NCBI RefSeq assembly: GCF_002310835.1
Contig: NZ_CP011042.1
Span: 210,001-242,000, forward strand
Reading direction: 5' to 3'
Length of the DNA: 32,000 nucleotides
Source of the DNA: Pseudoalteromonas tetraodonis
Lineage (GTDB): Bacteria > Pseudomonadota > Gammaproteobacteria > Enterobacterales > Alteromonadaceae
This document shows positions 793 to 20,806 of the stretch, one piece after another. The position numbers and the translations under genes were made by a program. How positions within the stretch are numbered: position 1 is the first letter of the stretch; each line of letters begins with the position of its first letter. Below the pieces are notes generated by a model. That model did no database searches. It saw only the letters and a list, made by a program, of their open reading frames with translations, and was not told the DNA's origin.

Positions 793-931
793 AATTAAAC
801 TGCTCGCATATTGCGTATTGTTATCGATAAAAACCTCCTCATATATTTTATAATTAACACTCAAAAACCCACGACCTTTGCTGTATGATAAGCCAATAAA
901 TTATATTGATATTCTTGCAAAGAGAGACCAC

Positions 932-4106: not shown

Positions 4107-4157
4107 TAACCTTAGCTGAGCGTTTAAAGGCCACAAAAACAAGAATAAGGATGTTTG

Positions 4158-7100
4158 ATGAAATTTACTGAAGCCAAATTAGAACAAGCGGTGGTTGAGC
4201 TATTAGGCGAGCAAGGCTACCCGCATTTATTGGGCGGTGAGCTCACCCGTAGTAACAGCGAAGTATTAATAAAAGAAGACCTCCGTGCTTTTTTAACCAA
4301 GCGCTACGCTAAAAATAATATTACCACCGGTGAAGTAGACTCAATAATTGCAAAGCTCGAAAAACTCCCTGCCAGTGATTTATACGAAAGTAATAAAACT
4401 TTTTGTAAGTGGCTAAGTGATGGATTCTTACTTAAACGGGAAGTACTTACACACGAGCGTGGCAGTTTAGCAGGGAGTAAATCACAAAAAGATTTGTATG
4501 TTCAGCTGCTTGATTACGACAACGTTGAGCAAGGCATTAAAAGTAGCCTAATAGCAGGCAGTGCTATGGCTGCTTTGGATAATGTGAATGAAGCCAGCGT
4601 TACTTACCTGCAAGACGATAATATTTATCGGTTTGTTACCCAGTTAGAAATAGAAAGCCCCACCAGTTACGACAATATTGAACTGCGTATTCCCGATGGC
4701 ATTTTATATGTGAATGGTTTACCACTAGTTGTGTTTGAATTTAAAAGCGCGATACGCGAGCAAGCCCCTATATTTGAAGCCTATGAGCAGTTAACGGTGC
4801 GCTACCGCCGCGCTATTCCGCAGTTATTTGTGTTTAATACCTTGTGCGTTATAAGCGATGGCGTAAACAATAAAATGGGTAACTTATTTGCGCCGTATCA
4901 GTTTTTTTACTCGTGGGGAAAAGTAACGGGACAAGAGCTAACCGCGCAAGAGGGGATTAACTCGTTACATACCTTATTGCAGGGCTTGTTTGATAAAGCG
5001 CGTTTGCGCGATGTTATGCGCAACTTTGTATTTTTTCCGGATTCTGATAATAAAAGCGCAGGCAAAAAAGAGATAAAAATTGTGCCGCGTTATCCGCAAT
5101 ATTATGCGGCTAATAAACTGTTCGAAAATATAAAACGCCACTTAAAGCCACAAGGCGATGGTAAAGGCGGTACGTATTTTGGCGCAACGGGTTGCGGTAA
5201 AAGTTACACCATGCAATTTTTAACACGTTTGTTGATGAAAAGCGTTGAACTTAAAAGCCCTACCATTATTTTAATTACCGACCGAACCGATTTAGACGAT
5301 CAGCTTTCGCAGCAGTTTGGCAATGCTAAAACCTACATTGGCGACGATACGGTAAAAACAGTGACCAGCCGTACTCACTTACGTGAGTTACTTGAAGGGC
5401 GTAACAGTGGTGGGGTATTTTTAACCACCATTCATAAATTTACCGAAGACACTCAGTTATTAACCGACCGCACTAACGTTATTTGTATTTCTGATGAGGC
5501 GCATCGTAGCCAAGTAAATCTTGATCAAAAAATTACCATTACCGAAAAAGGTGTAAAAAAGACCTTTGGTTTTGCTAAATACCTGCACGACTCATTACCA
5601 AACGCTACCTATGTTGGCTTTACCGGCACGCCAGTGGATGCGACTTTAGATGTGTTTGGTGAAGTGGTTGACTCGTACACCATGACTGAGTCGGTTAAAG
5701 ATGAAATAACCGTACGCATTGTGTACGAAGGCCGCGCCGCTAAGGTGTGTTTAAACAATAGCAAGCTGGCCGAAATTGAAGCTTATTACAAAGAATGTGC
5801 CGATGCAGGCAGTAACGAACTGCAAATAGAAGACAGTAAAAAAGCCACCGCTAATATGAATAGCATTTTAGGCGATCCTGACCGCATACGTGTATTAGCA
5901 AGGGACTTTGTTGAACATTACGAAAAACGCGTTGAGGAAGGTTCTACCATTGCAGGAAAGGCGATGTTTGTGTGTAGCTCGCGTGGCATTGCCTATCAGC
6001 TGTATCAAGAGTTAGAAGAATTACGCCCACAGTGGTTTGATGTAGTAGATACTGATGACGCGCAAACACTATCAGATACCGAGCGAAAGCGCGCTATTAG
6101 CGAGGGCCGTATTGCAGCCCCGTCTGAAAAAGTAAAAATGGTAATGACCCGTGGTAAAGATGACGTTGAACGCTTATATAATTTACTTGGCAGTAAAGAC
6201 GAACGTAAAGAGCTTGATAAGCAATTTAAAAACAAAAACTCAAACTTTAAAATAGCCATAGTGGTCGATATGTGGCTAACCGGTTTTGATGTGCCATTTT
6301 TAGATACCATGTACATAGATAAGCCATTGCAAAAGCACAGCTTAATACAAACTATTTCGCGGGTTAACCGCCAGTTTGAAGGCAAAGATAAAGGCTTAGT
6401 GGTTGACTACATTGGTATTAAATCTGAAATGAATAAAGCGTTAGCGCAGTATTCAAAAACTGACGAAACCAACTTTGAAGACATTACCGCCTCGGTTATT
6501 GAGGTAAAAAACCACTTGGCGTTACTTGCCGAGTTATTCCATAAATTTGACAGCAGCCCCTACTTTACAGGCGAAGCCGTTGCCCAGCTAAACTGTTTAA
6601 ACCACGCCGCCGAGTTTGCGCTAATTACCGAAAAACGGCAAAAGCGCTTTATGGATTTAGTTAAGCGTTTAAAAGCCGCTTACGATGTATGTTGCGGTAG
6701 TGAAAAAATAAACGAAAACGAGCGAAACCACATTCACTTTTACCTTGCCATTCGTTCTATTATTTACAAGTTAACCAAAGGCGAAGCGCCCGATACCGCG
6801 CAAATGAACGCCAAAGTACGTGAAATGATAAGTGAAGCCCTGCAAAGCGACGGCGTAAAAGAAGTATTTAAACTCGGTAATGAAGACGGCGGCGAAATTG
6901 ATATTTTTAATGACGACTACATCGCTAAAATAGAAAAAATAAAACTCCCCAACACCAAAATAAAAATACTGCAACAAATGCTAGCCAAAGCCATAGGTGA
7001 GCTTAAAAAAGTAAACCAAACCCAAGGTATCGACTTTACTAAACGCTTTGAATCGCTGGTACAGCGCTATAACGAGCGAAAAGAAGATGACGTACTGGTA

Positions 7101-7478
7101 AGTAGCGTACTTGATGAATTTTCAGACAGTATGGTTGATATGATTTACAGCGTACGCGACGAAATGAACGCCGGCGACGAGCTAGGCATTGATATTGAAG
7201 AAAAAGGCTTTTACGACGCCTTAAAAATGCTCGCCATTAAATACGACTTTGACTACCCCGAAGACAAGCTCATTGAGCTTGCTCAAGCAGTAAAAGTAAT
7301 TGTAGACGACAAAGTAAAATTTGTAGATTGGAACCACCGCGACGATATTAAATCAGCTTTAAAAGTAGAGCTGATTTTAATACTCGCTAAATTTAAATAC
7401 CCACCAATCAGCCGCGATGAAGTATACAAAGAAATATTTGAGCAAGCGCAAAATGTAAAAGCGAATAAAGAGGTGTAA
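4158..7478 (+). CDS. hsdR: Type I R-M restriction/translocase subunit HsdR
   Basis: About 1106 aa. N-terminal nuclease-type region (IPDGILYVNGLPLVVFEFKS), Walker A GATGCGKS (Lys codon 5199-5201), DEAH box at nt 5493-5504, FTGTP and QTISRVNR motifs. AAGGA lies upstream of ATG 4158. Confidence 0.95.
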   Translation: MKFTEAKLEQAVVELLGEQGYPHLLGGELTRSNSEVLIKEDLRAFLTKRYAKNNITTGEVDSIIAKLEKLPASDLYESNKTFCKWLSDGFLLKREVLTHERGSLAGSKSQKDLYVQLLDYDNVEQGIKSSLIAGSAMAALDNVNEASVTYLQDDNIYRFVTQLEIESPTSYDNIELRIPDGILYVNGLPLVVFEFKSAIREQAPIFEAYEQLTVRYRRAIPQLFVFNTLCVISDGVNNKMGNLFAPYQFFYSWGKVTGQELTAQEGINSLHTLLQGLFDKARLRDVMRNFVFFPDSDNKSAGKKEIKIVPRYPQYYAANKLFENIKRHLKPQGDGKGGTYFGATGCGKSYTMQFLTRLLMKSVELKSPTIILITDRTDLDDQLSQQFGNAKTYIGDDTVKTVTSRTHLRELLEGRNSGGVFLTTIHKFTEDTQLLTDRTNVICISDEAHRSQVNLDQKITITEKGVKKTFGFAKYLHDSLPNATYVGFTGTPVDATLDVFGEVVDSYTMTESVKDEITVRIVYEGRAAKVCLNNSKLAEIEAYYKECADAGSNELQIEDSKKATANMNSILGDPDRIRVLARDFVEHYEKRVEEGSTIAGKAMFVCSSRGIAYQLYQELEELRPQWFDVVDTDDAQTLSDTERKRAISEGRIAAPSEKVKMVMTRGKDDVERLYNLLGSKDERKELDKQFKNKNSNFKIAIVVDMWLTGFDVPFLDTMYIDKPLQKHSLIQTISRVNRQFEGKDKGLVVDYIGIKSEMNKALAQYSKTDETNFEDITASVIEVKNHLALLAELFHKFDSSPYFTGEAVAQLNCLNHAAEFALITEKRQKRFMDLVKRLKAAYDVCCGSEKINENERNHIHFYLAIRSIIYKLTKGEAPDTAQMNAKVREMISEALQSDGVKEVFKLGNEDGGEIDIFNDDYIAKIEKIKLPNTKIKILQQMLAKAIGELKKVNQTQGIDFTKRFESLVQRYNERKEDDVLVSSVLDEFSDSMVDMIYSVRDEMNAGDELGIDIEEKGFYDALKMLAIKYDFDYPEDKLIELAQAVKVIVDDKVKFVDWNHRDDIKSALKVELILILAKFKYPPISRDEVYKEIFEQAQNVKANKEV

Positions 7479-7577: not shown

Positions 7578-8837
7578 ATGACAATAATAAACTGGGGTCT
7601 ACTTGGCCCTGATAAACTTGAATCTGAACGACGCACTCGCACCTTGGGTCTTGCAGTTGCTGTACGTGCATTTAATGACTTGGCAGTACCTAATTTAGGT
7701 GGGGTAAAATTTAGTAAAAATGTTTTTTTAGCCTGTTTGGGCATTCATGTGGCTGAAAAAGTAAGATTAGAGGATAAGCAGGTAAGTAACATACAAGTTG
7801 CAAATGCAATTGAAGCGCTCGGCTGTATTTTGTCGTTTGAAAAAAATAATTGGCAGTCTGATGAAAGGTTAAGGGGAAACTCCAAGTTAGCAGGTGCAAA
7901 GGATTTATCATTTAAAGTAGTTGGCGCTAACAATTATTATGTAACACAGCCTATGCGTATGGCTACTGTGCAATTATTACCAGGACTTGGGTTAGTTGAA
8001 TCACAAGGAGAGCGATTTAATAGCTATAGTTTGAACGACAACGGATTGAAGTTAGTTATTGCCGGCTGCGCTGATTTAAAATGTTATAACAGTAGTATTG
8101 TTAATTTTTTAGTTAAGTGGGTGCTAGGTAATCATAGAAACCCTAGAGTAAGTGGTTTAATAAAGGCGCTAGCGCCTATTTATAGTTTAGCGGCAGACGC
8201 TAAAGCCATTTTAAAAGACCGTTTGGTTTCTGGTAATGATGAGTCTGCACTTCGAAGAAGAAATGCATTAACGTGGGTTAGTAATATAAATACAAACCCA
8301 TGTATTAATTGGCGAAAACCATCAGAATTAACAGACTTACATTTTAAAGACATAAAAAGTGGAGCTTACTTTTTCATACTCAGAGATAGTGTGATGATGT
8401 TATTAGACGCTATTGAAACCGCAGTTGCTAATGATAAGTCGGGGAGTTTAGATTTACGTAAAGGCACTCCTTTAGTTTTGCAAAACGCATTAACGAGAGT
8501 GAAGTCGGCTGCAACTAGTTTTGTTAATTTAAGCCATGATCCTACGCCTGATAAATTAGCGCTGAGTTTTGCACGTGAATGCTTACAAAGTCAGGATGAA
8601 TTAATTATTTTAAGTATTGTTGAAAGAGATAATTTAGTACTTAAAGTAAGAGATAAAGCTGTTATTAAAGGATCTGCTTTTGGTGGAGTGCAGCAAGAAG
8701 CTAACGACGCTGGCGAAACAGAAAGCTTGTTTCCAAAAGGCGTTTCATTTCGTTTTTGGAACTTGTATTTACTGAATGTTGACTTCGATGGGCAGCTCGA
8801 TATGTGGCTAAATAAAAAGGAGAAAGCAGATGAGTAA
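7578..8837 (+). CDS. Hypothetical protein, 419 aa, first gene of the PLD/SNF2 module; no recognisable domain
   Basis: Long ORF with an AAGAAGG SD-like sequence before ATG 7578. Its stop overlaps the next start (ATGAGTAA). I recognise no catalytic or TM motifs. Confidence 0.7.
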   Translation: MTIINWGLLGPDKLESERRTRTLGLAVAVRAFNDLAVPNLGGVKFSKNVFLACLGIHVAEKVRLEDKQVSNIQVANAIEALGCILSFEKNNWQSDERLRGNSKLAGAKDLSFKVVGANNYYVTQPMRMATVQLLPGLGLVESQGERFNSYSLNDNGLKLVIAGCADLKCYNSSIVNFLVKWVLGNHRNPRVSGLIKALAPIYSLAADAKAILKDRLVSGNDESALRRRNALTWVSNINTNPCINWRKPSELTDLHFKDIKSGAYFFILRDSVMMLLDAIETAVANDKSGSLDLRKGTPLVLQNALTRVKSAATSFVNLSHDPTPDKLALSFARECLQSQDELIILSIVERDNLVLKVRDKAVIKGSAFGGVQQEANDAGETESLFPKGVSFRFWNLYLLNVDFDGQLDMWLNKKEKADE

Positions 8838-10797
8838 CTCATTACCACTTTCTTTATCGGCTTATTTTGTGCCACCGACAGATTGTATTGGTGAATTTGG
8901 CTTGTTGACTGGATATTCGGCAGATACTCACTTTTTTAATGATGCACTTGATAAGTTTACGCAAACAATTAAATCACAAAGAGCCTATGAAGGAAGTGGT
9001 TATTTAGCCATGATGTTAGACCCAAACCATCACCAGATATCTGCGGTTGACTGCCCTGGGTTGGTTCATTTACCAGCTAAATCTAATATAGAAAAAAAGT
9101 TTAGATTGTTACATGCTAAAGTAGCGTTATTACTATTTAAAAATAAGCTAACAGAGCAAAAAATTATTAGGGTTATTGTTTCTACGGGGAATTGGACACG
9201 CCAAACAATAGAAGACAGTTTAGATATGGTTTGGTCGATTGATTATGAAGTAGCCTATAGTGATGATCATCAAGTGCAAACTGATATTGCCAAGGTGTAT
9301 GATTTTATCAATCACACTTTAACTTTTTTTAATATCGATATATTAAATAGCGTAAGAATAGAAAATAAAGCAACAGCAACAGCGCTAAGGTTTAAACACT
9401 ATCAACATGTTTTAGGTGAAATTAAGCCAGTAAAAAATGTACAACCTCGCTTTTTTGATAATACAAAGCAGGCACTCATCACACAGTTACCACATTTAAT
9501 AAAAACACATAGTAATAATACAAAGTGCAATTATTTAGCCCTTGGTTCTGGTTTTTATGAAGGTGGAGATAATAAGAGCAAAGTGCCAAAAGTGATTTCT
9601 GAGATTGAAAAAGTATTACAGCAGGCTGGTCTCTTAACTAAAACAGCTGAAAAAGATATTTATGTCAACCCTGATAATTGTCAACTAGTCGCTCAAACTT
9701 TAGATATATTAAATACAAATGATTGGTCAGTTAGGCCTGCTTACGATGCTGTTTATCAAAGTAAAAATTATCAAAGATCATTGCATGCAAAGTTTATTTT
9801 TTCAGCCAAAAATGGAAATGACGATAGCTGCAAAAGCTCATGGTTGTATTTAGGATCAGGAAATTTAACAACGCCTGGCTTTTTAAGTAAAGCAAGTTTG
9901 CATGGCGGTAACCTAGAAGCGGGAGTTGTGTTTTCTCCAAAAGAATTGAGTTGGTATGGCGAAGATGACTCAACTAATTGCATTAGTGATAAATTGCCTA
10001 TTAATTGGGATGAAGAAAGTATTATTACAGATGCTACGCAGTTGTGCTCAGGGAAGGGGATGCCAGAACTTGAAGGTGAATTTGTAGCTGCACCGATAAG
10101 TTATTTTACTATTTGTAGCTTAACTAAGACAGGTTGCTTATTACGACCTGATACTGATGATACAAAAGGCTATCAAGTTTGGTACGCTGAAAATTATGCG
10201 TGTGAGTGTAAAGGTGAAAATATAATTTGGCCCGATAATACTCCAAGGCAAGTGAAAGTTACGTGGAATATTAAAGATGCGACGCACAGCATTTATATAC
10301 CTGTATTCGATGAGTTTGGACGAATGGCAGCAACCGCTTTGCCTGAGTTAGAGATAGATGACGCATGGAACTTACTAGGCGCATTCCCTACTTTGCCCGC
10401 AGAGGACGGTTTCGATGGCGAGGTGCTAGATGAAAGCCATTCAGTGGCATTAAATTGTCAGCATGAGGCATCAGGTTCTAATTATTATTTAAATAAAATG
10501 ATGTTATTGATTGAACATGTAGCACAAAAACAAACAGAACTTGATCCATTCAACTGGGAACAGTGGTGTTATCGTTTAGAACAAATATTTTGTCAAATGA
10601 GTAAGTCAGCAGTAATTTCTTACTTTAAAGAAATTAATATTAATCCATTATCCCCTTTATGGGCTGCCCCTTTTAGACCTCATTTTGCAGAAGATTCAAG
10701 TACTGAGCAAGGTCGTTTATATGAGTCATTATTAAGAAAAATTGAACATAGTTTGGAATTGAATCAGTTAATAACGCTTGGAGGCAAAGGTGAGTAA
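8830..10797 (+). CDS. PLD-superfamily (two HKD motifs) phosphodiesterase/nuclease with an uncharacterised C-terminal half
   Basis: Motif 1 is LLHAKV...VSTGNWT (His codon 9112-9114). Motif 2 is SLHAKFIF...LGSGNLT (His codon 9784-9786). SD AAGGAG at 8817-8822. Overlaps both neighbouring genes. Confidence 0.8.
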   Translation: MSNSLPLSLSAYFVPPTDCIGEFGLLTGYSADTHFFNDALDKFTQTIKSQRAYEGSGYLAMMLDPNHHQISAVDCPGLVHLPAKSNIEKKFRLLHAKVALLLFKNKLTEQKIIRVIVSTGNWTRQTIEDSLDMVWSIDYEVAYSDDHQVQTDIAKVYDFINHTLTFFNIDILNSVRIENKATATALRFKHYQHVLGEIKPVKNVQPRFFDNTKQALITQLPHLIKTHSNNTKCNYLALGSGFYEGGDNKSKVPKVISEIEKVLQQAGLLTKTAEKDIYVNPDNCQLVAQTLDILNTNDWSVRPAYDAVYQSKNYQRSLHAKFIFSAKNGNDDSCKSSWLYLGSGNLTTPGFLSKASLHGGNLEAGVVFSPKELSWYGEDDSTNCISDKLPINWDEESIITDATQLCSGKGMPELEGEFVAAPISYFTICSLTKTGCLLRPDTDDTKGYQVWYAENYACECKGENIIWPDNTPRQVKVTWNIKDATHSIYIPVFDEFGRMAATALPELEIDDAWNLLGAFPTLPAEDGFDGEVLDESHSVALNCQHEASGSNYYLNKMMLLIEHVAQKQTELDPFNWEQWCYRLEQIFCQMSKSAVISYFKEININPLSPLWAAPFRPHFAEDSSTEQGRLYESLLRKIEHSLELNQLITLGGKGE

Positions 10798-13366
10798 TTT
10801 TTTAGGTTGGGAAAAGGTTGCTGAAATAATAAAAGATACTCTCGGATTCAATGAGCGTCTGAACTCAACCCAAAAAGAAAGTGTAAATGCGATACTAGAT
10901 AGGATAGCTGACACGGGAGTAATTATTGCTGATGAAGTTGGCATGGGTAAAACACGAATAGCAGTTGAGCTTATCCATGCTGTTAAACAAGCAGGTGGTC
11001 GTGCAGCCATTATTGTGCCCACAACATTAGGATTCCAATGGCAAAAAGAGCTTAATGATCGCGAAGCAGATTTAGCGCCTCAGCACACAGTAAATAGTCT
11101 CTGGCGTTTTATGTCTGCTTGGGCTGATTGTGACAAGCAAGAGCATTGGGATAAACAGTCGGTTATTTTATTATCTCAAAATTTTGCGAATTGGCGTATT
11201 GGTGGTAATTCTCATTCAAGTCGTTGGGCACTGCTACCAGAAGTGTATGCACAGTGGCGAAAAGCTAAAAATAACAGGTTACCTAATGGTTACAATAGCC
11301 ATGAAGACCTAAAATATATGGATGCTAAATATTGCGCACGTAGAATTGTTGAACAAACATATTACCTATCGAATAATGATCCTAGAAAGAAAATTTTAAA
11401 TTGCATCATTGAAAACTTTGAATGGGGTGTAAATTCATTTGGCGGGGATAATTTTTCTGCTGGAAGTGAATACCGAGATTTGTTAGAAAAAACGGTAGGT
11501 TTAGGACTCGGTTCATTTGACTTAGTTGTTATAGATGAAGCACATAAAAGCCGAGGTGAAAGCAGTAGCTTAAGCCGAATTTTGAATGAAATTATTATTC
11601 AAAATGATAATGGTCGCCGGTTAGCTATGACGGCTACACCTGTTGAGTTAAATGTTGAGCAATGGCAACAAATGCTCAATAGAATTGAGTTATCCGAATC
11701 TGATCAGCAGCCTATTTTAAAGAGTGTTGATAACTATGCTAAAGCTGTTGCTAAACTCAAGTTATATTGGAAGGTCGATGAGCAATCTCGGTTGAGTTTT
11801 CAGCGGGCCGCTAGAGCGTTTGAAAACTCGTTAAAACCTTATTTATTAAGAAGAGATAAGCGACAAGACCCAACAATTCAAAAATTTCACTCTGTTTCAA
11901 ATTTACCAATTAATGAATATAGGAAGCATACCCAGGTTGAAATTAAAGTAGAAGAACTATCAGAGCAGTGGAAGCAAATAGTGTGCTCTGTTGAAGGGCT
12001 ATCTGCTGCTTCAATTATGCAAGATGCGACTTCAAAAAGAGCACGACTTACGCTAGCTAATGGTCACGGGATTGCTGGAATTATAGATAACTCAGCTTAT
12101 TCATCCCCTCAAGGTGACGATGACGAGCTAGAAAATGATTTGAACAATGATGATAGTAAAAAGCTTCAACGGGCTCACTGGTGGAAAAAACAGATTACTG
12201 AGGTATATGCAAGTGGAGATGAATCGTTATATCAACATCCTGCATTATTAAAAGTTATTTCAGAAATTGAAAATAATTTAATGTTGGGTCAAAAAGCATT
12301 AGTGTTTGGTAAGTTGACCAAGCCTATGAGGATATTAGTTAATTTATTAAATGCAAGAGAAATGCTACGCAGGCTAGATAAAAACGAGTTTTGGCCTCAA
12401 ACTAAAATTCATATCAGTGATAAAGAAAATGATGACTCTGAAGTGCATGCGGCCAAATTTGCGTCAAAGCAACTTGGTTTAAATTGGAGTATTAATGAAA
12501 TAAATGATCGTTTAAAACGTCAATATGAAAAGCATGCAAACCAAGTGGACCAAACTAAACAACACCTGATTGAAAATATTGAACACTCAATCTCTTTATT
12601 GGATACACGTTGTGAACAGCTCTTCAAAGCATTTAAAAAATCTGTTGAACAAGCCTGCTCAGAGGAACATTCTGTTCTTACTTTTATGACTCGTGCTATT
12701 TATGAGTTATCAGATTCAAGCGATTTTAATTTAACATCTGAAGAGGTTGCTCAGGGTTTTATTGATCTAATGGGTGCAGTCACAGCAGAGAATGAAGGTG
12801 ATGCCGATGGTGATGGTCAATTAGATGAAAAAGAAGCAAGCAAGCTTTGGCCCTGTATAGAAGCAAGGGTAAAAGAAGAGTATGAACATGTTAGAGGTGG
12901 CATGGCGCGCTTAATGTATGGGAATACATCAGCGGCAAGTCGTCGTATGTTACAGTTGGGTTTTAATCGTAAGAACAGTTTTCCTAATGTGTTAGTTGCA
13001 CAGTCAGTAGTTGGACGAGAAGGGTTAAATTTACATCAAGCTTGTCGGTTCGTATATTTATTGCACCCAGAGTGGAATCCTGGCGTTGTTGAGCAACAAA
13101 TAGGTCGTGTTGATAGGCTCGGATCTCGTTGGGAGAAAGAGTTTTCCGAGCAACAAGAGCAAGGAGGAGAGCTTCCGTTTATTGAAATTAAGCAGGTTAT
13201 ATTTAAGGGAACTTATGACGAATATAATTGGCAGGTATTGCATGCGCGCTGGGATCAACTTCGCTCACAATTACATGGAGTTGTCATCCCTATAAGTGAA
13301 CGAGATGATGCGTTTTCACATTATTATGATGAATTATGCTTAGCTGCACCGGATTTTACTCCTTAA
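10790..13366 (+). CDS. SNF2-family (SF2) helicase/translocase
   Basis: Motif I DEVGMGKT (Lys codon 10949-10951), motif II DEAH (11534-11545), MTATPVE, GREGLNLH and QQIGRVDRLGS. GTG 10790 follows GGAGG (10780-10784) and overlaps the PLD stop (GTGAGTAA). The track's TTG 10778 is the alternative start. Confidence 0.9.
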   Translation: MSNFLGWEKVAEIIKDTLGFNERLNSTQKESVNAILDRIADTGVIIADEVGMGKTRIAVELIHAVKQAGGRAAIIVPTTLGFQWQKELNDREADLAPQHTVNSLWRFMSAWADCDKQEHWDKQSVILLSQNFANWRIGGNSHSSRWALLPEVYAQWRKAKNNRLPNGYNSHEDLKYMDAKYCARRIVEQTYYLSNNDPRKKILNCIIENFEWGVNSFGGDNFSAGSEYRDLLEKTVGLGLGSFDLVVIDEAHKSRGESSSLSRILNEIIIQNDNGRRLAMTATPVELNVEQWQQMLNRIELSESDQQPILKSVDNYAKAVAKLKLYWKVDEQSRLSFQRAARAFENSLKPYLLRRDKRQDPTIQKFHSVSNLPINEYRKHTQVEIKVEELSEQWKQIVCSVEGLSAASIMQDATSKRARLTLANGHGIAGIIDNSAYSSPQGDDDELENDLNNDDSKKLQRAHWWKKQITEVYASGDESLYQHPALLKVISEIENNLMLGQKALVFGKLTKPMRILVNLLNAREMLRRLDKNEFWPQTKIHISDKENDDSEVHAAKFASKQLGLNWSINEINDRLKRQYEKHANQVDQTKQHLIENIEHSISLLDTRCEQLFKAFKKSVEQACSEEHSVLTFMTRAIYELSDSSDFNLTSEEVAQGFIDLMGAVTAENEGDADGDGQLDEKEASKLWPCIEARVKEEYEHVRGGMARLMYGNTSAASRRMLQLGFNRKNSFPNVLVAQSVVGREGLNLHQACRFVYLLHPEWNPGVVEQQIGRVDRLGSRWEKEFSEQQEQGGELPFIEIKQVIFKGTYDEYNWQVLHARWDQLRSQLHGVVIPISERDDAFSHYYDELCLAAPDFTP

Positions 13367-13381
13367 TATAAAAGTTTATTA

Positions 13382-14356
13382 ATGAATTCACATCGTCATT
13401 TATTGATTCTCGAGCTTGTGCCAATAGCGCCAAGCTCTATCTCGACTCAACAGCTACAGAAAAAGTTAGTTGAATGTGGCTTTGAGTTCCCCATTCGAAT
13501 GCTCCAGCGAGACCTCCAATCACTTTACGAGCAAGGTTGTTTTGGCCTTGAAAAAGACACGCGCAGTAAACCGTATGGTTGGTCTATTAATGCACAGTGG
13601 CGAGGTGGTAGCGCTAAAATTATGAGCTGCGAAGTAGCTGAGCATTATTTGTTACTAGAGCAGTTATTACCGCAATCTATACCGAGCGATGTTAAACGCT
13701 CAGTTCATATTAAAGCAGAACAAGCGCTTAAGCGTTTTAATGGCGATGTGCCTGACTGGCTTGCAACCCTGCCTAAACCGTCGTTAAAAGTGAATATTGA
13801 TAGCAAATTAGTTGCGCAAATTGAGCATGCGATTAAGCATAAGCGTGCTGTGAGCGCTGAGCTTTATAGAGTGCTTTACGATGAGGCGCACTGGTTAAAG
13901 TTTGCTGAATTAAGCTTTTATAGCTTAGTTGAGCAAGGTGGCGTGTTGATGGCGCAGTTTATGGTGGGGTCGCTTCACGATAAATGTTACCAGATGCCGG
14001 TTTATCGCATTCGCAATGTTCATATCCTGCAAAAAACACGACGTGAGCCAAGTGCTGAGCAGTTAAAGTCGTTACGCAGTGCGATTAATAAAGGTATGAA
14101 GCAAGAAGCGATTGAGTTAGTTGTGAAAGTACCCAGCCACTCGGTGGTTAATCAAGGGTTTATTGAGCTTGGAGAGCTGACTGACAAGCAACATATTGAT
14201 GAAAAAAATGTATTACTTACCTATCAAACTATTGATACTGAACAATTAACCGATGAGCTATTTAAATGTGCTCATTGGCTGGAAGTTATTAAACCTGAGC
14301 GCATTAGAAAAAGAATTACCACAAAGCTTAAAGCGGCTGCTAGTAACTATCAATAA
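13382..14356 (+). CDS. wHTH-WYL-WCX transcriptional regulator (BrxR/CapW/YafY-like)
   Basis: N-terminal winged-HTH pattern (ISTQQLQKKL..PIRMLQRDLQSL..G). Central WYL-like beta region (WLKFAELSFYSLVEQGGVLMAQF...VYRIRNVHIL). C-terminal WCX-like signature (HWLEVIKPERIRKRI). The architecture was recognised by eye. Confidence 0.75.
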   Translation: MNSHRHLLILELVPIAPSSISTQQLQKKLVECGFEFPIRMLQRDLQSLYEQGCFGLEKDTRSKPYGWSINAQWRGGSAKIMSCEVAEHYLLLEQLLPQSIPSDVKRSVHIKAEQALKRFNGDVPDWLATLPKPSLKVNIDSKLVAQIEHAIKHKRAVSAELYRVLYDEAHWLKFAELSFYSLVEQGGVLMAQFMVGSLHDKCYQMPVYRIRNVHILQKTRREPSAEQLKSLRSAINKGMKQEAIELVVKVPSHSVVNQGFIELGELTDKQHIDEKNVLLTYQTIDTEQLTDELFKCAHWLEVIKPERIRKRITTKLKAAASNYQ

Positions 14357-14371
14357 CGCTAATTAATTTTA

Positions 14372-14392
14372 GTGCGTCAATTTTTGACGCAC
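14372..14392. promoter_or_regulatory. Perfect palindrome GTGCGTCAA-TTT-TTGACGCAC between the WYL gene and the FtsZ-like gene; candidate operator (or weak terminator)
   Basis: 9-bp arms read from the sequence. It contains TTGACG and lies just upstream of a possible extended -10 (TGtTATGCT, 14398-14406). Only a poor T-tract follows. Confidence 0.35.
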
Positions 14393-14429
14393 CTATTTGT
14401 TATGCTCCTTTAAAAGTTAAGGAGTGGTT

Positions 14430-15527
14430 ATGTTTCAATTAATTCAGCAAAATGATGGTTTATCGATTGGTGTATTTGGCATTGGTGGGTGTGGCTGTAA
14501 TACGCTTAACAGTATTTTTGAACAACGCGAGTCTGAGCAGGCGCACTTATACAGCGTTAATACCGACAAAGTAGTGCTTGAGCATACACAGAGTGATGAA
14601 GCAGTACTGATAGGTGCAGAGCTCACTCATGGGTATGGTGCAGGAGCCGACCCTAAAGTTGGGCTGCAAGCGGCAGAAGAGAGTAAAGAGCAGCTTTTAA
14701 CGCTTATTAATGGCTGCGATATAATTTTGTGTGCAACAGGGTTGGGTGGCGGTACTGGGACTGGCGCTAGCCCGTATATTGCAGAGCTTGCTAGTGAGCA
14801 AGGTAAGCCCATTATATTTGTTGCTACACTGCCATTTAGTAGTGAAGGACAGTTTAGAAATAATATAGCGCAAGCAGGTTTAAATGAGCTTAAAGAGCAT
14901 GCTAATGCGGTTATTACGCTCCCTAACGATCAACTTATTGAAGTGCTTGGTAACGATATAGGATTATTCGATGCGTTTAAGCACTCAAACCAAATACTCC
15001 ACTCACTGATAAAATCACTCATCGATATGCTTTGTTTTCAAGGGCTTATAAATGTTGATTTAAACGATTTTGCTAAAATTATGGATTGCCAGGGTGATGC
15101 AGTCCTAGGTGTTGGTAAATGCGATGAAGAAAGCGAGCTTACTACTGCATTGGATAGTGCACTCAATAACCCACTTGTTAATCAAGTTGATATGTCATCA
15201 AGTACGGGTGTAATAATACAAGTAAATTGCAAAGATGAAATTTCACTCGGTAGTTATAACCTCATTACCGATACAGTGCGCCAGCGGGTCAGCCCAAACG
15301 CGTTAGTTATTTGTGGTGTTTCTAAAATTGAAAATTTAGCAATGAATTATGAACTGTTGATCATTGCAACCGGTGCAAGCGCTAAGATGATTGTTGAACC
15401 TTTCGATAATGCGCCTAGTAGCGAAGTCGAACAATCGCCAGCTGCAAGAGCTAAACCTCAAGCTTCTGATATTTTTGACATACCAGCGTTTATACGTAAT
15501 CAAGCACCAGCTCCTTGTGGAAAATAA
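14430..15527 (+). CDS. Divergent FtsZ paralogue (tubulin/FtsZ GTPase) retaining the C-terminal FtsA/ZipA-binding peptide
   Basis: GIGGCGCN, VNTD, GYGAGADPKVG, GLGGGTGTG (14739-14765), LPFSSEG, LPNDQL, T7 loop NVDLND (15051-15068) and terminal DIFDIPAFIRNQA (15468-15506). SD AAGGAG at 14419-14424, 5 nt before ATG 14430. No dcw-cluster neighbours. Confidence 0.9.
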   Translation: MFQLIQQNDGLSIGVFGIGGCGCNTLNSIFEQRESEQAHLYSVNTDKVVLEHTQSDEAVLIGAELTHGYGAGADPKVGLQAAEESKEQLLTLINGCDIILCATGLGGGTGTGASPYIAELASEQGKPIIFVATLPFSSEGQFRNNIAQAGLNELKEHANAVITLPNDQLIEVLGNDIGLFDAFKHSNQILHSLIKSLIDMLCFQGLINVDLNDFAKIMDCQGDAVLGVGKCDEESELTTALDSALNNPLVNQVDMSSSTGVIIQVNCKDEISLGSYNLITDTVRQRVSPNALVICGVSKIENLAMNYELLIIATGASAKMIVEPFDNAPSSEVEQSPAARAKPQASDIFDIPAFIRNQAPAPCGK

Positions 15528-15577
15528 CTATGTTACTGCTTTGAGAGTCTGAATACATTTTTCAGTGAGATAACCCT

Positions 15578-15904
15578 ATGAATGTATATTTAGATGATGA
15601 AAGAGAAACACCAGCCGGTTGGTTAAGAGCCTATTGGCCTAGTGAAGTGATTAAACTTTTGAAGACTGGTAAAGTAAAGCTGCTTAGCCTTGACCATGAT
15701 TTAGGGAATGATAATAAAGGCACTGGCTATGACGTTTTACTTTGGATTGAGCAGGCAGTGTTTATTGATGGCTTTGTACCGCCAACAATAGCCGTTCACT
15801 CAGCCAATAGCTCAGCACGAATTAAAATGGAACGCGCAATTACACAAATTAATTTACTGGCTAAAAATCAAAAGGGTTCTAAACGCTGTGATGGCGAGTG
15901 GTGA
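15578..15904 (+). CDS. Small receiver (REC/flavodoxin-like) fold protein with YLDDER...SLDHDLG...VHSAN motifs (cREC-like family)
   Basis: 108-aa ORF. The motif pattern matches a family of about 100-aa proteins that I recall being annotated as cyclic-phosphate-processing receiver domain, common in phages and conflict loci. The assignment is from memory only. Confidence 0.6.
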   Translation: MNVYLDDERETPAGWLRAYWPSEVIKLLKTGKVKLLSLDHDLGNDNKGTGYDVLLWIEQAVFIDGFVPPTIAVHSANSSARIKMERAITQINLLAKNQKGSKRCDGEW

Positions 15905-15931
15905 GCTTTGCAAGTAAACAGGAATATTTTT

Positions 15932-16651
15932 ATGAATACGTTATACATTACAGGAGCTGGTGTGAGTGCTGCTAGTGGTATTCCAACTTTTCGTGGTGAG
16001 GATGGCTTTTGGACTATTGGTAGTAAAAACTATACGCCAATGGAAATGGCGACACGTGCAATGTATGAAAATAACCCGAGTGAGTTTTTAGCTTGGTATT
16101 ATCATCGTTTTGCAACTTATCGTAATCATGGTCCTAATGAAGTGCATCATTGGCTTAGTGATAAAAACTTAATTACCCAAAATATTGATGGGCTAGATGG
16201 TAAGGCGGGTAATAAAAATTACATTGCGATTCATGGTCGGCTTGATCAAATGACGCTGTTTCATCATCAGGGCGATGATGTCACACCAGAAGCTACGCTA
16301 TGGAGTAATGTTGATGAGAGCAACTTACATCGCTCTCTACTTGCGTTATTCAATATTGAAAACCATCAGCCAAAGCTTAATCATTCTTTAAAGCCCTTTG
16401 TGTTGTTATTTGATGAATATTACACCGAGCTATACCGCATTACTGAAGCGCAATCGCGAATGATTGCGGCCGATAAAATGGTGTTTATGGGTACTTCGTT
16501 CAGCGTTAATATTACTCAAATGGCGCTCGAGATTGCGCGAAGTTACAGTATTCCTATTGAAATTGTTGACCCCGACCCTGCTCATGTATTGCACTCAAAT
16601 GTAAGCTATAAAAAAATGACTGCGTTGGAGTACATACAGCAACAAGGTTAA
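15932..16651 (+). CDS. SIR2/sirtuin-family NAD+-dependent enzyme lacking the Zn-ribbon cysteines
   Basis: GAGVSAASGIPTFRG Rossmann/NAD motif, QNIDGL, and catalytic His in IAIHG (codon 16232-16234). There is no Cys anywhere in the segment where sirtuins carry CxxC...CxxC. ATG 15932 with ACAGGA upstream is preferred over the track's TTG 15908. Confidence 0.9.
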   Translation: MNTLYITGAGVSAASGIPTFRGEDGFWTIGSKNYTPMEMATRAMYENNPSEFLAWYYHRFATYRNHGPNEVHHWLSDKNLITQNIDGLDGKAGNKNYIAIHGRLDQMTLFHHQGDDVTPEATLWSNVDESNLHRSLLALFNIENHQPKLNHSLKPFVLLFDEYYTELYRITEAQSRMIAADKMVFMGTSFSVNITQMALEIARSYSIPIEIVDPDPAHVLHSNVSYKKMTALEYIQQQG

Positions 16652-16806
16652 CTAGGTAAATAGGTTTTGTATTGCTGCTGGTATACATAACCTATTATGC
16701 GTTATTAATAATCAGTACAGCTTAGGCTATGTTATTGTTAGCCTTTAATTCACACTATGTACCGGTTATTTTAAGTACTAAAATACATTATAAGTAGACG
16801 ACAGCA

Positions 16807-17622
16807 ATGTTAAGTATTTCTCTTGGGCCTTTGGTTATTTCCATTTCACAGTTGATCATTTTTTTAGGGTTAGGCATTTTTTGGGGGCTTACCTATTTAT
16901 TAACACGCCAACATCCATTACAAAAAGCGATTTTAGACACTGTTTTTAAAGCAATTGTGGTGGGCTTTTTAGTCTCGCGGTTAGCGTTTGTGTTTACTAT
17001 GTGGGATGCCTATCAAGGTAACTGGTGGCAGCTTTTTAATATTAGCGATGGCGGCTTTATTGGTTATTATGGTTGGCTCAGCGGTATAGTGGTTTTAGCG
17101 TTTTATGCACGTGGTAAAAAAGCGGTAATGAAAAACTACGCTATTGCTGGGTTTGTTGGTTTTTGTTCAATGATTATTCCTAATTTTGCGCTGTCTATCT
17201 ACCAAACGGGTGTGCAGTTACCGCAGTCTGTTGTGCAAAATATTCAAGGGCAGCAAGTTAACTTACAAAACTTCAAAGGTAAGCCGGTGGTGATTAACTT
17301 TTGGGCGTCGTGGTGTCCGCCGTGTCGAAAAGAAATGCCGGTACTGCAAGCGGCTCAAAAAAATAATCCAAATATTACGGTGGCATTTGTCAATCAAGGT
17401 GAAGACTTACACACGGTAAAAGCGTTCCTTGATAAACAGCAACTCGACCTAAATCATGTGTTTTTTGATCAAAGTAGTAATGTGAGTCGCGAATCAGGTG
17501 CTGCGGGCATACCAACTACTTTGTTTTATAATAGCCAAGGTGAGTTAGTTACCAGTCATATGGGAGAGCTTTCTCATGCGAGTTTAGGCTATTATATTCA
17601 AGCTATTAGTGATAATAAATAA
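16807..17622 (+). CDS. Membrane-anchored TlpA/ResA-like thiol:disulfide oxidoreductase (thioredoxin fold, WCPPC)
   Basis: N-terminal half has about 4 hydrophobic helices. C-terminal thioredoxin domain has NFWASWCPPCRKEMP. Confidence 0.8.
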   Translation: MLSISLGPLVISISQLIIFLGLGIFWGLTYLLTRQHPLQKAILDTVFKAIVVGFLVSRLAFVFTMWDAYQGNWWQLFNISDGGFIGYYGWLSGIVVLAFYARGKKAVMKNYAIAGFVGFCSMIIPNFALSIYQTGVQLPQSVVQNIQGQQVNLQNFKGKPVVINFWASWCPPCRKEMPVLQAAQKNNPNITVAFVNQGEDLHTVKAFLDKQQLDLNHVFFDQSSNVSRESGAAGIPTTLFYNSQGELVTSHMGELSHASLGYYIQAISDNK

Positions 17623-17878: not shown

Positions 17879-20806
17879 ATGACCGCTCATCGGATAACCC
17901 ACGCTGTACATCACTCTCTTCCACTTTTTATTAAATCAACGCTGTGCATCTCTATTTTATCTGTGATTAATCATGCATATGCTGATGAAGCAGAAGATAA
18001 AACATTAAAAAGCAAAGATATGGAAGTCATTGAGGTGCGTGGTATTCGTTCCAGTATGGCGGCTAATTTAGATATAAAGCGTTTATCGAGCTCTGTGGTT
18101 GATGCCATAACAGCAGAAGATATTGGTAAGTTCCCTGATAAAAATGTCGCAGATTCATTACAACGCGTACCAGGGGTAGTGATTGACCGTGACGGAGGCG
18201 AGGGCTCATCGGTAAGTATTAGGGGGTTATCATCTGAGCTAACCTTTTCTCAGCTAAATGGTAATTTTATTGCGTCATCACCAGGTGAGCCATCTCGTTC
18301 GTTTGATTATGCATTACTGCCCTCAGCCATGATTGAAAGCGTGGAAGTGTATAAATCACCAGAGGCACGTTTAGATGAAGGTGGCGTGGGCGGCACGGTA
18401 TTAATGCATAGTCGTAAGCCGCTAAGTATGGATGCAAACTCAGGGGTGATTAATATTGAAAGCACTTATGCCGATGTGACTGAAGAGTCTGAGCCCCAAG
18501 TAACCGCACTTTATTCTTGGAAGAATGAGGCTGATACTTTTGGTGTGTTGTTTGGTTACACCTCACAAAAACGCACTAACCGAACTCTCTCAGGAGGCAC
18601 AGATGCAAACGTATGGCGCTTTGCCGGTGATAACCCGATAGATACCAATGGCGAGCTGGTTGATAATAATAATCAGTGGGGCTCAATAAGTGATGCTCAG
18701 GGTAATAGTTATGACGATGTTTGGTTTCCTCAAGTGGTTCGTGGCTCAATTGTAAACGAATTACGTGAGCGAGAAGGGGTGCAATTTAGCACGCAGTGGC
18801 GCCCAACCAGCCGTGTTAAAATTGGCTTTAACTATTTTGGATTTTCACTTGATAAAAATAGAACTGAGTCGGTGATTGATATACCTGAATGGTCTTTAAA
18901 TCCTGACTTTTTAACCGATGTAAGTTTGGATGAGTCGGGCACTATTATCAATGGGATGCAATTTGATGCAGCTGCGAGTGGCGCAGAGAATGATATGCAA
19001 CTGCCGTGGATGCGAGGCTCTTATGTGCGTGAAGAGTCGACCTCAGACACTTTTGATTTTAATTTAACCTATGAAGGCGATTATTTTAAAGCCCGTTTTG
19101 TGGCGGGCAATACGCGCTCTGAAGGCGGGCCAAAGGAGAGTTGGGAAGCGGCGTATAAAAGTTCAAACGCCGGTGAAAATGAAAGCCGTATAGAAAATGC
19201 ATCGCAAACAGCGGGTTGGCAAATTAATGAAAACGATATTAGTTTAAATATAGACCCTAATACGCTAGCTAACTTACTAAATGGTGTGGGCGGTGGGCGC
19301 GATCCAGGCTCGTCAAATTCAAGCTTTGTACGCAGTGAACTCGAAGAAGATTACTATCAAGCTGACTTTGATATTTATACCGATTGGGGAATTTTAAGAA
19401 CAATTAAAACAGGGGTTAAGTACCGAGAAGCTACGCTGCATCGCGAAACCGGTAATACCTTCTTTTTAGATCCTAATTTTGATATTGCTGCAGCAGAAGC
19501 CAGCGAGTGAGGGATCACACGTTTTGACAGTTATCAGTGGAACAACGGTATGCCACTAGCACAAGACGTGTTTATTAACGAAGGTAACATTGCGGGTGGT
19601 TTTAATATTAACCAAATGCCCGGTATTGATTGGCAAAAATACCGCGATATTGTGACCAGTCATTATGTGCCGTATACACGCAAAGAAGATAACTTTATTT
19701 ATGATATTGAAGAGCAAATAGCGGCGTTTTATCTGCAAGGTGATTTTGAGTTTAATAGCGTGCGAGGTAATTTAGGGGTGCGGGTGGTACGCACTAAAAC
19801 CATGACATCATCAACCGACCTATATACTTATTTATTAGATCATACCAATGATGACAGCGGCGAGCCGGTAACCGGAGATGATCGATTTGTTGAAGACTAT
19901 CAACTTATTACTCAAGAGAGTACCGATACTCAAATTCTTCCTAGCTTTAATATTGCATGGGATATAAGTGATGATGTAGTGGTACGAGGCGCGGTTGCTA
20001 AAGTGATGTCACGACCTGATTATGCCGATTTAGGCGCACAACAACGCATTACGTTTGTCTCAGATGAGTGGGCAGACGATAGAGCTGAGTTTAATGAAAT
20101 TCCGGGTTTTAGTGGCAGTGGCGGTAATAAAAACTTAAAGCCATTTGAGTCGGTGCAAGCTGATTTATCTATTGAATATTATTACAGCGAAGGCTCTGCC
20201 ATTGGTTTAGCACTGTTTCATAAAACAGTTGATAATTTTGTTGTTCCCTTAGTTATTGACGTACAGCAAGATTTTGCTGGTAAAGAGGGCATAGTTGAGG
20301 CAGGAAATATTACTGTATCGCCATATAGCACAGTAGGTAATGGCACTGATGCCGTATCTAAAGGGGCGGAAGTATTTATACAGCATGCCTTTGATAGTGG
20401 TTTTGGTTTTTATGCAAACTACACTTATAACAAAACCAATAAAGCCGATGTAAGTGTAAATGGTGAAGAATTTGGCCAATCACCATTAATAGGCAGTGCT
20501 AAGTATCAATACAATACCTCGATATATTATGAGGGAGATGCCTTTAATGTTCGTGCTTCTTATAATAAACGCGGTGAAACCGTGTTGGGTTTAAACAGCG
20601 GCTTAAATGTATACCAAGACCCATACGAGCAAGTTGATGTAAATGCTTCGATTAATTTATTAGAGGATTTGAGTTTGACCGCTGCAGTTATTAATTTGAC
20701 TAAATCTGAGTCGGTAAAGCGCCTAGGTAATGATACAGAGTCTCGGTTATTAAACTCAAGCTATTCGGGAAGACGTTATTATGCGGGCATAAACTACCGT
20801 TTTTAA
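17879..20806 (+). pseudogene. TonB-dependent outer-membrane receptor interrupted by a single in-frame TGA (19508-19510)
   Basis: The track ORFs 17879-19510 (signal peptide plus plug: DAITAEDIGKFPDKNVADSLQRVPGV) and 19550-20806 (barrel ending ...YYAGINYRF) are in the same frame. Codons 19511-19549 contain no further stop. Confidence 0.8.

Follow-up and report, generated by a model that had tools for sequence, protein, structure and literature searches.

A WYL regulator gene and a GGCGCN-type FtsZ paralogue form the conserved unit of a composite locus in Pseudoalteromonas defence islands

Introduction

In Caulobacter, the WYL regulator DriD activates the division inhibitor gene didA after DNA damage (PMC9186387), and in Acinetobacter a WYL regulator activates the division inhibitor aciT, also after DNA damage (PMC13010146). 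The cREC (cyclic-phosphate-processing receiver-like) family was defined by Iyer et al. and is predicted to process cyclic phosphates or ADP-ribose (ADPr) derivatives (PMC7824862); its links to sirtuins and WYL domains were noted by the same authors (PMC9503650). Here we analyse a locus of four genes, encoding a WYL regulator, an FtsZ paralogue, a cREC protein and a SIR2 sirtuin, in a stretch of 32,000 nucleotides from Pseudoalteromonas tetraodonis (contig NZ_CP011042.1, positions 210,001 to 242,000 of the forward strand), which we call the window. An earlier note, made from this DNA alone, had proposed that the four genes form a defence operon centred on NAD, with the FtsZ paralogue as sensor or scaffold and SIR2 depleting NAD+. 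We find that the locus is composite and not a single operon, and that its conserved unit consists of the WYL gene and the FtsZ paralogue.

Results

Gene content and conservation of the locus

The four genes are the following.

13382-14356, + strand: WYL-family transcription regulator, predicted to be of the winged helix-turn-helix (wHTH)-WYL-WCX type (PADLOC WYL models, WCX matches in the family)
14430-15527, + strand: FtsZ paralogue of the 'GGCGCN' clade, 365 aa (Tubulin and FtsZ_C profiles)
15578-15904, + strand: cREC protein (PF20274)
15932-16651, + strand: cysteine-free sirtuin (SIR2) of class III/U-type (PF02146)

They are separated by 73, 50 and 27 nucleotides (nt), and 155 nt lie between SIR2 and the next gene, which is redoxin/LGT-like. 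The FtsZ paralogue has an alternative GTG start at 14424. The same four genes are present in public gene calls for Pseudoalteromonas (GCA_007991235.1). Checked against these calls and against the open reading frames (ORFs), the coordinates and spacers that the earlier note gave for four co-directional genes proved exact, and profile searches upheld its four domain calls (WYL/WCX, FtsZ-like GTPase, receiver fold and SIR2 without zinc ribbon).

For the comparison within the genus we used 13 species-level loci from a scan of species-representative genomes (the other 67 loci of that scan were unrelated canonical FtsZ genes), together with close relatives and annotated second-chromosome records. 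Loci were compared by tblastn and ORF clustering; 17 were scored for the WYL gene and the FtsZ paralogue and 15 were clustered for cREC, and the census of second chromosomes comprised nine complete PLSDB records. In a metagenome scan with the clade alignment the generic GGGTGTG pattern drew canonical FtsZ, and two of 80 loci were useful (L110 and L111). Single loci are cited by such numbers below.

In all 17 Pseudoalteromonas loci, which represent at least 13 species, the WYL gene directly neighbours the FtsZ paralogue and has the same orientation. The paralogue is found on six of the nine second chromosomes, and the WYL gene on exactly those six. A cREC gene directly follows the paralogue in 9 of the 15 clustered loci and on none of the nine complete second chromosomes. 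SIR2 stands beside cREC and the paralogue in the window lineage only, where the four-gene layout is shared with the close relatives L002-L010. All nine second chromosomes carry SIR2, eight of them with a Kelch gene upstream, and where both SIR2 and the paralogue occur they are 4-35 kb apart. SIR2 lies 8 kb past cREC, beyond nine metabolic genes, in L026, and in P. donghaensis it is 4 kb from the paralogue, behind a Kelch gene. Nucleotide conservation between Pseudoalteromonas loci runs from the WYL ATG until after the stop codon of the paralogue or of cREC, and therefore variable DNA abuts the pair on both sides. In the loci of other genera that were examined, neither cREC nor SIR2 is near the distant FtsZ paralogues. 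The constant adjacency, the shared set of second chromosomes and a conserved control region (see below) bear out an earlier claim that the WYL regulator is dedicated to the adjoining downstream gene. Between loci, the dS values of WYL and paralogue disagree, a sign of mosaic recombination in the region.

The sirtuin and the cREC protein

The SIR2 protein matches PF02146 (2.3e-23), and its database matches comprise more than 100 clusters, 83-99% identical and labelled sirtuin or deacylase, across named Pseudoalteromonas species. Where a species lacks the paralogue, SIR2 still occupies the same syntenic block, close to SDR, MscS and AstB, and immediately follows a Kelch or GGDEF gene. The ATG of SIR2 is precisely where nucleotide homology between SIR2 loci sets in; 5' of it, the sequence is unrelated in each arrangement. 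The closest solved relatives are Sir2-Af1/Af2, SIRT5 and CobB. The alignment to Sir2-Af1 (residues 5-105) includes GAGVSAASGIPTFRG, TQNIDGL and IHG; the canonical GAGxS/TQNID/HG motifs are present and the catalytic residue is His101 (16232-16234). The protein has 12 His and no Cys, and hence no canonical Cys4 zinc ribbon; the earlier note had been right both on the histidine codon and on the absence of cysteine. The best NCBIfam score is 114.6 bits (CobB-like models) against a cutoff of 243. Searched against the PADLOC families, SIR2 gave no match, and no defence SIR2 profile was hit.

Because of its canonical motifs and relatives, the absence of a PADLOC match and its genus-wide synteny, SIR2 falls outside the module. 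Judged by these features it is a core, genus-wide sirtuin of predicted deacylase type and not a mobile NADase effector, and it was brought beside cREC by lineage-specific loss of the intervening genes. The role of NAD+-consuming defence effector that the earlier note had given it is thus abandoned, and the idea that FtsZ filaments scaffold SIR2 has lost its basis, since SIR2 is not part of the conserved unit. In most species the start of SIR2 overlaps the stop of the Kelch-repeat gene by 4 nt (L097-L102, L108), which suggests that Kelch protein and sirtuin are a functional pair.

The cREC protein matches the profile PF20274 (cREC_REC) with 3.9e-26 and 92 bits, against a cutoff of 27. Its acidic residues D6, D7, D39 and D41 are invariant in 40 homologues. 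An AlphaFold 2 model has a predicted local distance difference test (pLDDT) score of 92.3, and its top 50 Foldseek neighbours in the PDB are all response-regulator REC domains, with template modelling (TM) scores of about 0.5; a phmmer search of the PDB with the sequence gave no match. The protein also matches phrog_1479, a phage family of unknown function (1e-23), and a scan of viral contigs for cREC found one distant locus (L200). Members of its sub-clade are 65-74% identical across unrelated Proteobacteria, and in Vibrio and Roseateles the gene is solitary, with neither FtsZ nor SIR2 as neighbour. Most Pseudoalteromonas copies have no adjacent sirtuin, and a conserved link to genes for NAD+/ADPr or RNA-end processing was not found. 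Within Pseudoalteromonas (window versus L017-L026), dS is 0.16-0.32 for cREC and 0.5-1.9 for the adjacent paralogue; the neighbouring genes exceed cREC in dS by a factor of 2-6, and cREC therefore has a separate and more recent history at the locus. It is a mobile solo gene and a facultative passenger 3' of the paralogue in some Pseudoalteromonas. We also considered a phage-type RNA-repair module and rejected it: RNA ligase, 2H, Nudix, kinase and PIN genes are absent and the sirtuin is genus-wide.

We now consider the four-gene operon very improbable. In its favour, the genes are co-directional with short spacers and have no predicted internal terminator 3' of the paralogue in the window lineage, and close relatives have the same arrangement; a cREC-sirtuin linkage has also been described in phages (PMC9503650). 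The survey across genomes found no conserved linkage of the four genes. SIR2 is syntenic throughout the genus, usually follows a Kelch or GGDEF gene, occurs where the paralogue is absent, is otherwise kilobases away from it, shares homology with other SIR2 loci only from its ATG onwards and is of the canonical and not the defence type. The cREC gene has a different history and is missing from about half of the loci, and distant paralogues have neither gene nearby. A sirtuin beside defence genes is here not a defence NADase, and tight spacing in one genome misled; the operon question was decided by testing whether co-occurrence is conserved across genomes.

The FtsZ paralogue

The FtsZ paralogue matches the Tubulin (7.8e-41) and FtsZ_C (3.8e-14) profiles. 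It is about 33% identical to E. coli FtsZ and equally far from archaeal and bacterial FtsZ structures, and on the TIGR00065 equivalog it scores 281.5 bits, under the cutoff of 295.2. The following segments were located in it.

14484-14501, + strand: T1 loop GGCGCN
15051-15068, + strand: T7 loop NVDLND
15468-15506, + strand: C-terminal peptide DIFDIPAFIRNQA

The T7 loop and the C-terminal peptide lie where the earlier note had placed them. All of the 120 best database matches have in common a T1 loop GGCGCN (GGGGGN in canonical FtsZ), a T7 loop NVDxNDF and a C-terminal peptide of the DIPAxxR type. When the clade was compared with 74 diverse canonical FtsZ proteins, with positions counted as conserved if they reach at least 90% in the canonical set, it kept 47 of 54 such positions, including every nucleotide contact and the catalytic N207, D209 and D212. 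The kept positions include G19/G20/G22/N24, N43-D45, G103-G111, E138, N165 and F182, and G21 is replaced by Cys; the differences cluster at G21C and round the T7 loop (F210x, A211N, V213F). A C-terminal peptide of the DIPxFLR type is present in 99 of 101 clade members, with DIFDIPAFIRNQ in the window protein. This DIPAFIR-type peptide is like the FtsA/ZipA-binding one of canonical FtsZ, and docking is predicted. The linker in front of it is short.

The clade is small. An exhaustive search found only about 8 clusters at 50% identity, and the named members are all marine Alteromonadales (Pseudoalteromonas, Agarivorans, Moritella, Thalassotalea, Colwellia and Cognaticolwellia). The ratio of nonsynonymous to synonymous substitution (dN/dS, omega) is 0.05-0.10 for the paralogue and 0.09-0.16 for the WYL gene, indicating that both are maintained by selection. 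Neither ftsA nor lpxC, the dcw context, is beside the paralogue in any of about 30 loci, and three of the nine complete second chromosomes do not carry it. The clade was not found in phage or true-plasmid collections. A tblastn search of phages gave canonical or contaminant FtsZ genes only, and a degenerate DNA pattern for GGCGCN had one chance match in viral contigs, in a high-GC contig (L107); on these results phages do not carry the clade.

Two familiar identities were rejected. A housekeeping FtsZ is contradicted by the score below the TIGR00065 cutoff, the position outside dcw and the incomplete distribution. A segregation tubulin of the TubZ/PhuZ kind is contradicted by a PhuZ PHROG match of only 2e-05, by the lack of homologues in the phage and true-plasmid collections and by dispensability in three of nine strains.

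A further possibility is that the paralogue is a spare FtsZ that promotes division, either replacing an FtsZ blocked by SulA, MinC or prophage/phage inhibitors or serving under particular growth conditions. The intact GTPase and polymerisation residues, the FtsA/ZipA-type tail and the strongly purifying selection agree with this, and the altered T1/T7 surface residues (G21C, F210x, A211N, V213F) could change the response to inhibitors. However, the identity to gammaproteobacterial FtsZ is only about 33%, which makes full substitution in the divisome doubtful, the linker is short, and control by a WYL protein resembles that of inducible inhibitors. We therefore rate a spare FtsZ as improbable.

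In the literature searched we found no description of an FtsZ paralogue in a defence island, with a WYL gene or in Pseudoalteromonas, and PADLOC v2 has no model for it, nor for cREC or this SIR2. The earlier view that the paralogue was new in such a setting has thus held, and a GGCGCN-clade FtsZ paralogue with its own WYL regulator is apparently undescribed. Separately, tandem double-FtsZ polypeptides of 744-840 aa were seen in a representative protein library (proteins P0361, P0363 and P0364); in P0364 the T1 loop of the first half is of the GGCGCN type and that of the second half is canonical.

The spacer between the WYL gene and the paralogue

The 73-nt spacer between the two genes is the best-conserved non-coding DNA of the locus and contains two features.

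14372-14392, + strand: 9-bp perfect inverted repeat GTGCGTCAA-ttt-TTGACGCAC, candidate WYL operator and/or attenuator hairpin
14403-14426, + strand: hairpin formed by CTCCTT and AAGGAG, the Shine-Dalgarno sequence of the FtsZ paralogue; found in every locus of the alignment

The hairpin starts about 10 nt 3' of the palindrome. Across loci the palindrome has the form GGTGCGTCAA-nnn-TTGACGCACC with arms of 9-10 bp, and no other site of this kind exists in the window, where 0.02 would be expected by chance. In 17 loci the arms and the Shine-Dalgarno hairpin hardly vary at all, even in species where the identity of the paralogue is as low as 70%; the centre of the palindrome and the sequence just 3' of the WYL stop drift among the same loci. 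Compensatory changes were not seen in the palindrome, and the rare substitutions break pairing, a pattern that agrees with a protein-binding operator no less than with a terminator. The hairpin may damp translation of the paralogue. An Rfam scan of 13000-17000 gave no match.

The WYL regulator

The WYL protein matches PADLOC WYL models with 6e-10 (residues 134-320) and 1.6e-05 (residues 2-160), and its orthologues are annotated as 'WYL domain-containing protein'. For the Pfam WCX domain the window protein is below threshold (0.0029; 18.3 versus 23.9 bits), and 13 of 14 family members match, the best with 5e-07. A phmmer search of the PDB with the single protein gave no match. The family profile gave only five weak PDB matches (7U02, 7TZV, 8TP8, 9CU3 and 9PFQ; E 0.036-0.12), and no BrxR or CapW structure was among them. 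The entries 7U02 and 7TZV were confirmed as DriD structures; 8TP8, 9CU3 and 9PFQ are presumably DriD as well.

The pairing is seen beyond Pseudoalteromonas. Homologous WYL genes (28-45% identity to each other) flank the FtsZ paralogue in L194, L014 and L195 in differing orientations: the WYL gene of L194 precedes the paralogue in the same direction, beside three tandem integrases, and in L014 (Thalassotalea) and L195 it is downstream and convergent. This brings to at least four the lineages in which a homologous WYL regulator accompanies the paralogue.

The genes upstream of WYL are almost always co-directional and end 7-80 nt before the WYL ATG (L001-L029, L108, L109; in the window about 13366-13382). 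This distance leaves no room for a conserved WYL promoter, and WYL may be transcribed by read-through from whatever cargo is upstream.

The Colwellia-type loci have a composition of their own. In L110, L111 and L190-L193 a divergent HicB-like/ribbon-helix-helix (RHH) gene of 140 aa takes the place of WYL, a conserved 83-aa ORF with four cysteines (Cys4, zinc-ribbon-like) lies 18 nt 3' of the paralogue, and the bioABFCD operon adjoins the inserted block.

Genomic surroundings

In the window, a type I restriction-modification (R-M) system (878-7478) and a trio of genes for an unknown, a PLD-like and an SNF2 protein precede WYL, and the redoxin gene follows SIR2. The neighbourhood of type I R-M and PLD/SNF2 genes described by the earlier note is therefore present, and PADLOC and the other loci uphold the setting in a defence island. 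The genes directly 5' of WYL differ by species. The window and L021 have type I R-M and PLD-like/SNF2 genes; L002 and L109 have Drt1a and a type IV HNH nuclease, and L109 has viperin at a greater distance upstream; L108 has McrBC and a CRISPR ring nuclease; and other Pseudoalteromonas have IetA-like and McrB-like ATPases. On the downstream side there are integrases (tandem pairs or P4-type) or core metabolic genes, depending on the locus. The P4-type integrase stands beside a tRNA-like remnant and is followed by Mrr and type I R-M. In that locus (L029, about 11230-12700) the tRNA-like T-arm GGGGGTTCAAATCCCCC lies about 140 nt 3' of the paralogue stop, and together with the genes after it this T-arm marks a site of island integration immediately next to the paralogue.

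The association with defence islands and mobile genetic elements (MGEs) recurs across genera. In Agarivorans (L011, 1404-9679) the paralogue is directly between a complete PADLOC candidate system, PDC-M60A/B/C, and a 570-aa integrase. The third PDC-M60 protein in this locus combines REC with a PNP_UDP nucleosidase, a REC-PNP effector whose architecture we take to be Detocs-like. In Moritella the paralogue adjoins a HerA-like ATPase cluster.

Such surroundings also allow a reading in which the WYL gene and the paralogue have no role in defence or damage and either just flank an insertion hotspot of chromosome II or serve TubZ-like segregation of that replicon. The pair is located on the second chromosome, and in Pseudoalteromonas its position is fixed while both sides are variable. 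Yet it is missing from three of the nine second chromosomes, and it is therefore not needed to maintain that replicon; other genera carry the paralogue on 1.4-4.6-Mb contigs beside integrases or defence genes, and the similarity to PhuZ/TubZ is negligible (2e-05). A bystander of this kind seems to us decidedly improbable.

Two further features of the window concern other genes. The trio upstream of WYL (7578-13366, co-directional) encodes a 419-aa unknown protein, a 655-aa PLD-like protein with weak PLDc_2/ZacB matches and an 862-aa SNF2 helicase that matches PADLOC PDC-M27C (1e-25) and is DrmD-like. The trio is intact also in P. neustonica (L021) and is by itself a candidate for a defence system. 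At 17879-19510 and 19550-20806 a TonB-dependent receptor is split into two ORFs (Plug and barrel) and corresponds to one 975-aa gene in the relatives L003 and L004; the gene is probably disrupted in the window strain.

Discussion

The reading that we prefer, although we would put its chances no higher than even, is that the WYL sensor controls a paralogue that would act on the divisome during DNA damage or attack by a phage or MGE. The WYL protein would bind the palindrome and respond to a nucleic-acid cue, which could be single-stranded DNA, as for DriD, or a phage- or MGE-derived signal, as for BrxR/CapW. This response would switch on the FtsZ paralogue, which would otherwise be kept low. 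The paralogue might then polymerise and/or compete for the divisome anchors FtsA/ZipA through its C-terminal peptide, so that cell division would be arrested or re-routed while the cell handles the DNA damage, phage or mobile element.

Several points weigh against this reading. The signal, the sign of the regulation and the effect on division are what we infer from sequence. The similarity to DriD structures is marginal (E 0.036-0.12), HTH_11 or HTH_12 was seen in only 2 of 14 WYL family members, and a single-sequence AlphaFold model of the WYL protein has a low pLDDT of 32.6. The palindrome is flagged by a terminator scan and could simply be the WYL terminator; it is specific to Pseudoalteromonas and was not found upstream of the paralogue in other genera. 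L011, L012 and L015 have no WYL neighbour, and the Colwellia-type clade has the HicB-like gene, not WYL, beside the paralogue. In Pseudoalteromonas the pair is at a fixed chromosomal position, and its defence neighbours could reflect an insertion hotspot. Finally, the 50- and 27-nt spacers of the window lineage have no predicted terminator, so that co-transcription of cREC and SIR2 with the paralogue is possible there.

Alternatively, the two genes may be an anti-phage system, in which the paralogue would be a decoy or guard against phage FtsZ inhibitors (Kil- or Gp0.4-like) or would freeze division in abortive infection, with WYL as a switch of the BrxR/CapW type. The paralogue is in defence islands or beside integrases in several genera, its distribution is patchy (six of nine second chromosomes), and strains of the same named species have divergent alleles, with 87% versus 70% identity to the window protein. 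Its expression appears, from the features of the spacer, to be tightly controlled, and WYL regulators such as this one, with its PADLOC match, are typical of defence loci. On the other hand, neither PADLOC nor the literature searched knows the paralogue, the locus is fixed and under strong purifying, not diversifying, selection, and the Colwellia-type members are among housekeeping genes. Overall we find an anti-phage system unlikely, though credible. The suggestions of the earlier note that the paralogue is a decoy or guard, or that it poisons the divisome, are possible for the FtsZ paralogue alone. A still bolder idea, which we hold to be speculative and on balance unlikely, is that WYL and GGCGCN FtsZ are a self-contained immune or checkpoint module of two genes with an FtsZ homologue as effector or decoy, which would sense or absorb phage or MGE attack on the divisome or freeze division on a nucleic-acid alarm. 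It would be the first defence-island system built on a protein of the FtsZ/tubulin family.

If the WYL sensor does control a divisome-acting paralogue, then marine gammaproteobacteria possess a second FtsZ under regulation, one that retains the catalytic machinery and the divisome-docking peptide and is nevertheless accessory, island-associated and WYL-controlled, and the principle of a WYL protein controlling a division modulator, known from DriD-DidA and Acinetobacter AciT, would extend to a cytoskeletal paralogue. The clade would also offer a natural FtsZ variant, with G21C and an altered T7-loop surface, for studying polymer interfaces and inhibitor sensitivity. Should a phage phenotype appear, the divisome would join the cellular targets guarded by defence islands.

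The DriD-didA and Acinetobacter WYL-aciT systems have in common a WYL regulator, a dedicated gene that acts on division and an inverted repeat at the target promoter (PMC9186387, PMC13010146), and the same three elements are predicted here. The targets in those systems are small membrane inhibitors, whereas here the target would be a full-length FtsZ paralogue, and here the two genes lie side by side in defence islands; by the E values given above, the resemblance to DriD is marginal. With BrxR/CapW the WYL protein shares the predicted wHTH-WYL-WCX architecture, the location in defence islands and a palindromic candidate operator. Those regulators stand upstream of multi-gene defence systems (BREX, CBASS, R-M); in contrast, this one stands downstream of variable defence genes and is linked to the FtsZ paralogue only.

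The other two genes also have described counterparts. Phage sirtuin-cREC modules, predicted to function in RNA repair or ADPr processing (PMC7824862, PMC9503650), likewise have cREC beside a PF02146-type sirtuin with WYL near. The window differs in having no RNA ligase, 2H, Nudix, kinase or PIN genes, and its sirtuin is a host gene found throughout the genus whose adjacency to cREC is lineage-specific. The defence proteins and systems ThsA, DSR1/2, SIR2-HerA and SIR2-pAgo share with the window SIR2 the superfamily and the catalytic His. The window protein, however, has deacylase motifs and no PADLOC match, has no fused or linked sensor, and is core and not accessory.

The paralogue itself has in common with canonical FtsZ the Tubulin/FtsZ GTPase and FtsZ_C domains, GGGTGTG, the catalytic Asp of T7 and a C-terminal peptide of the FtsA/ZipA type. 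It differs by its score below the cutoff, GGCGCN in T1, NVDxNDF in T7 and a short linker, and it is accessory, outside dcw and tied to WYL genes and genomic islands. Known FtsZ paralogues are rhizobial FtsZ2, magnetotactic FtsZm and FtsZl-1; unlike FtsZ2 and FtsZm, the GGCGCN paralogue keeps the C-terminal peptide.

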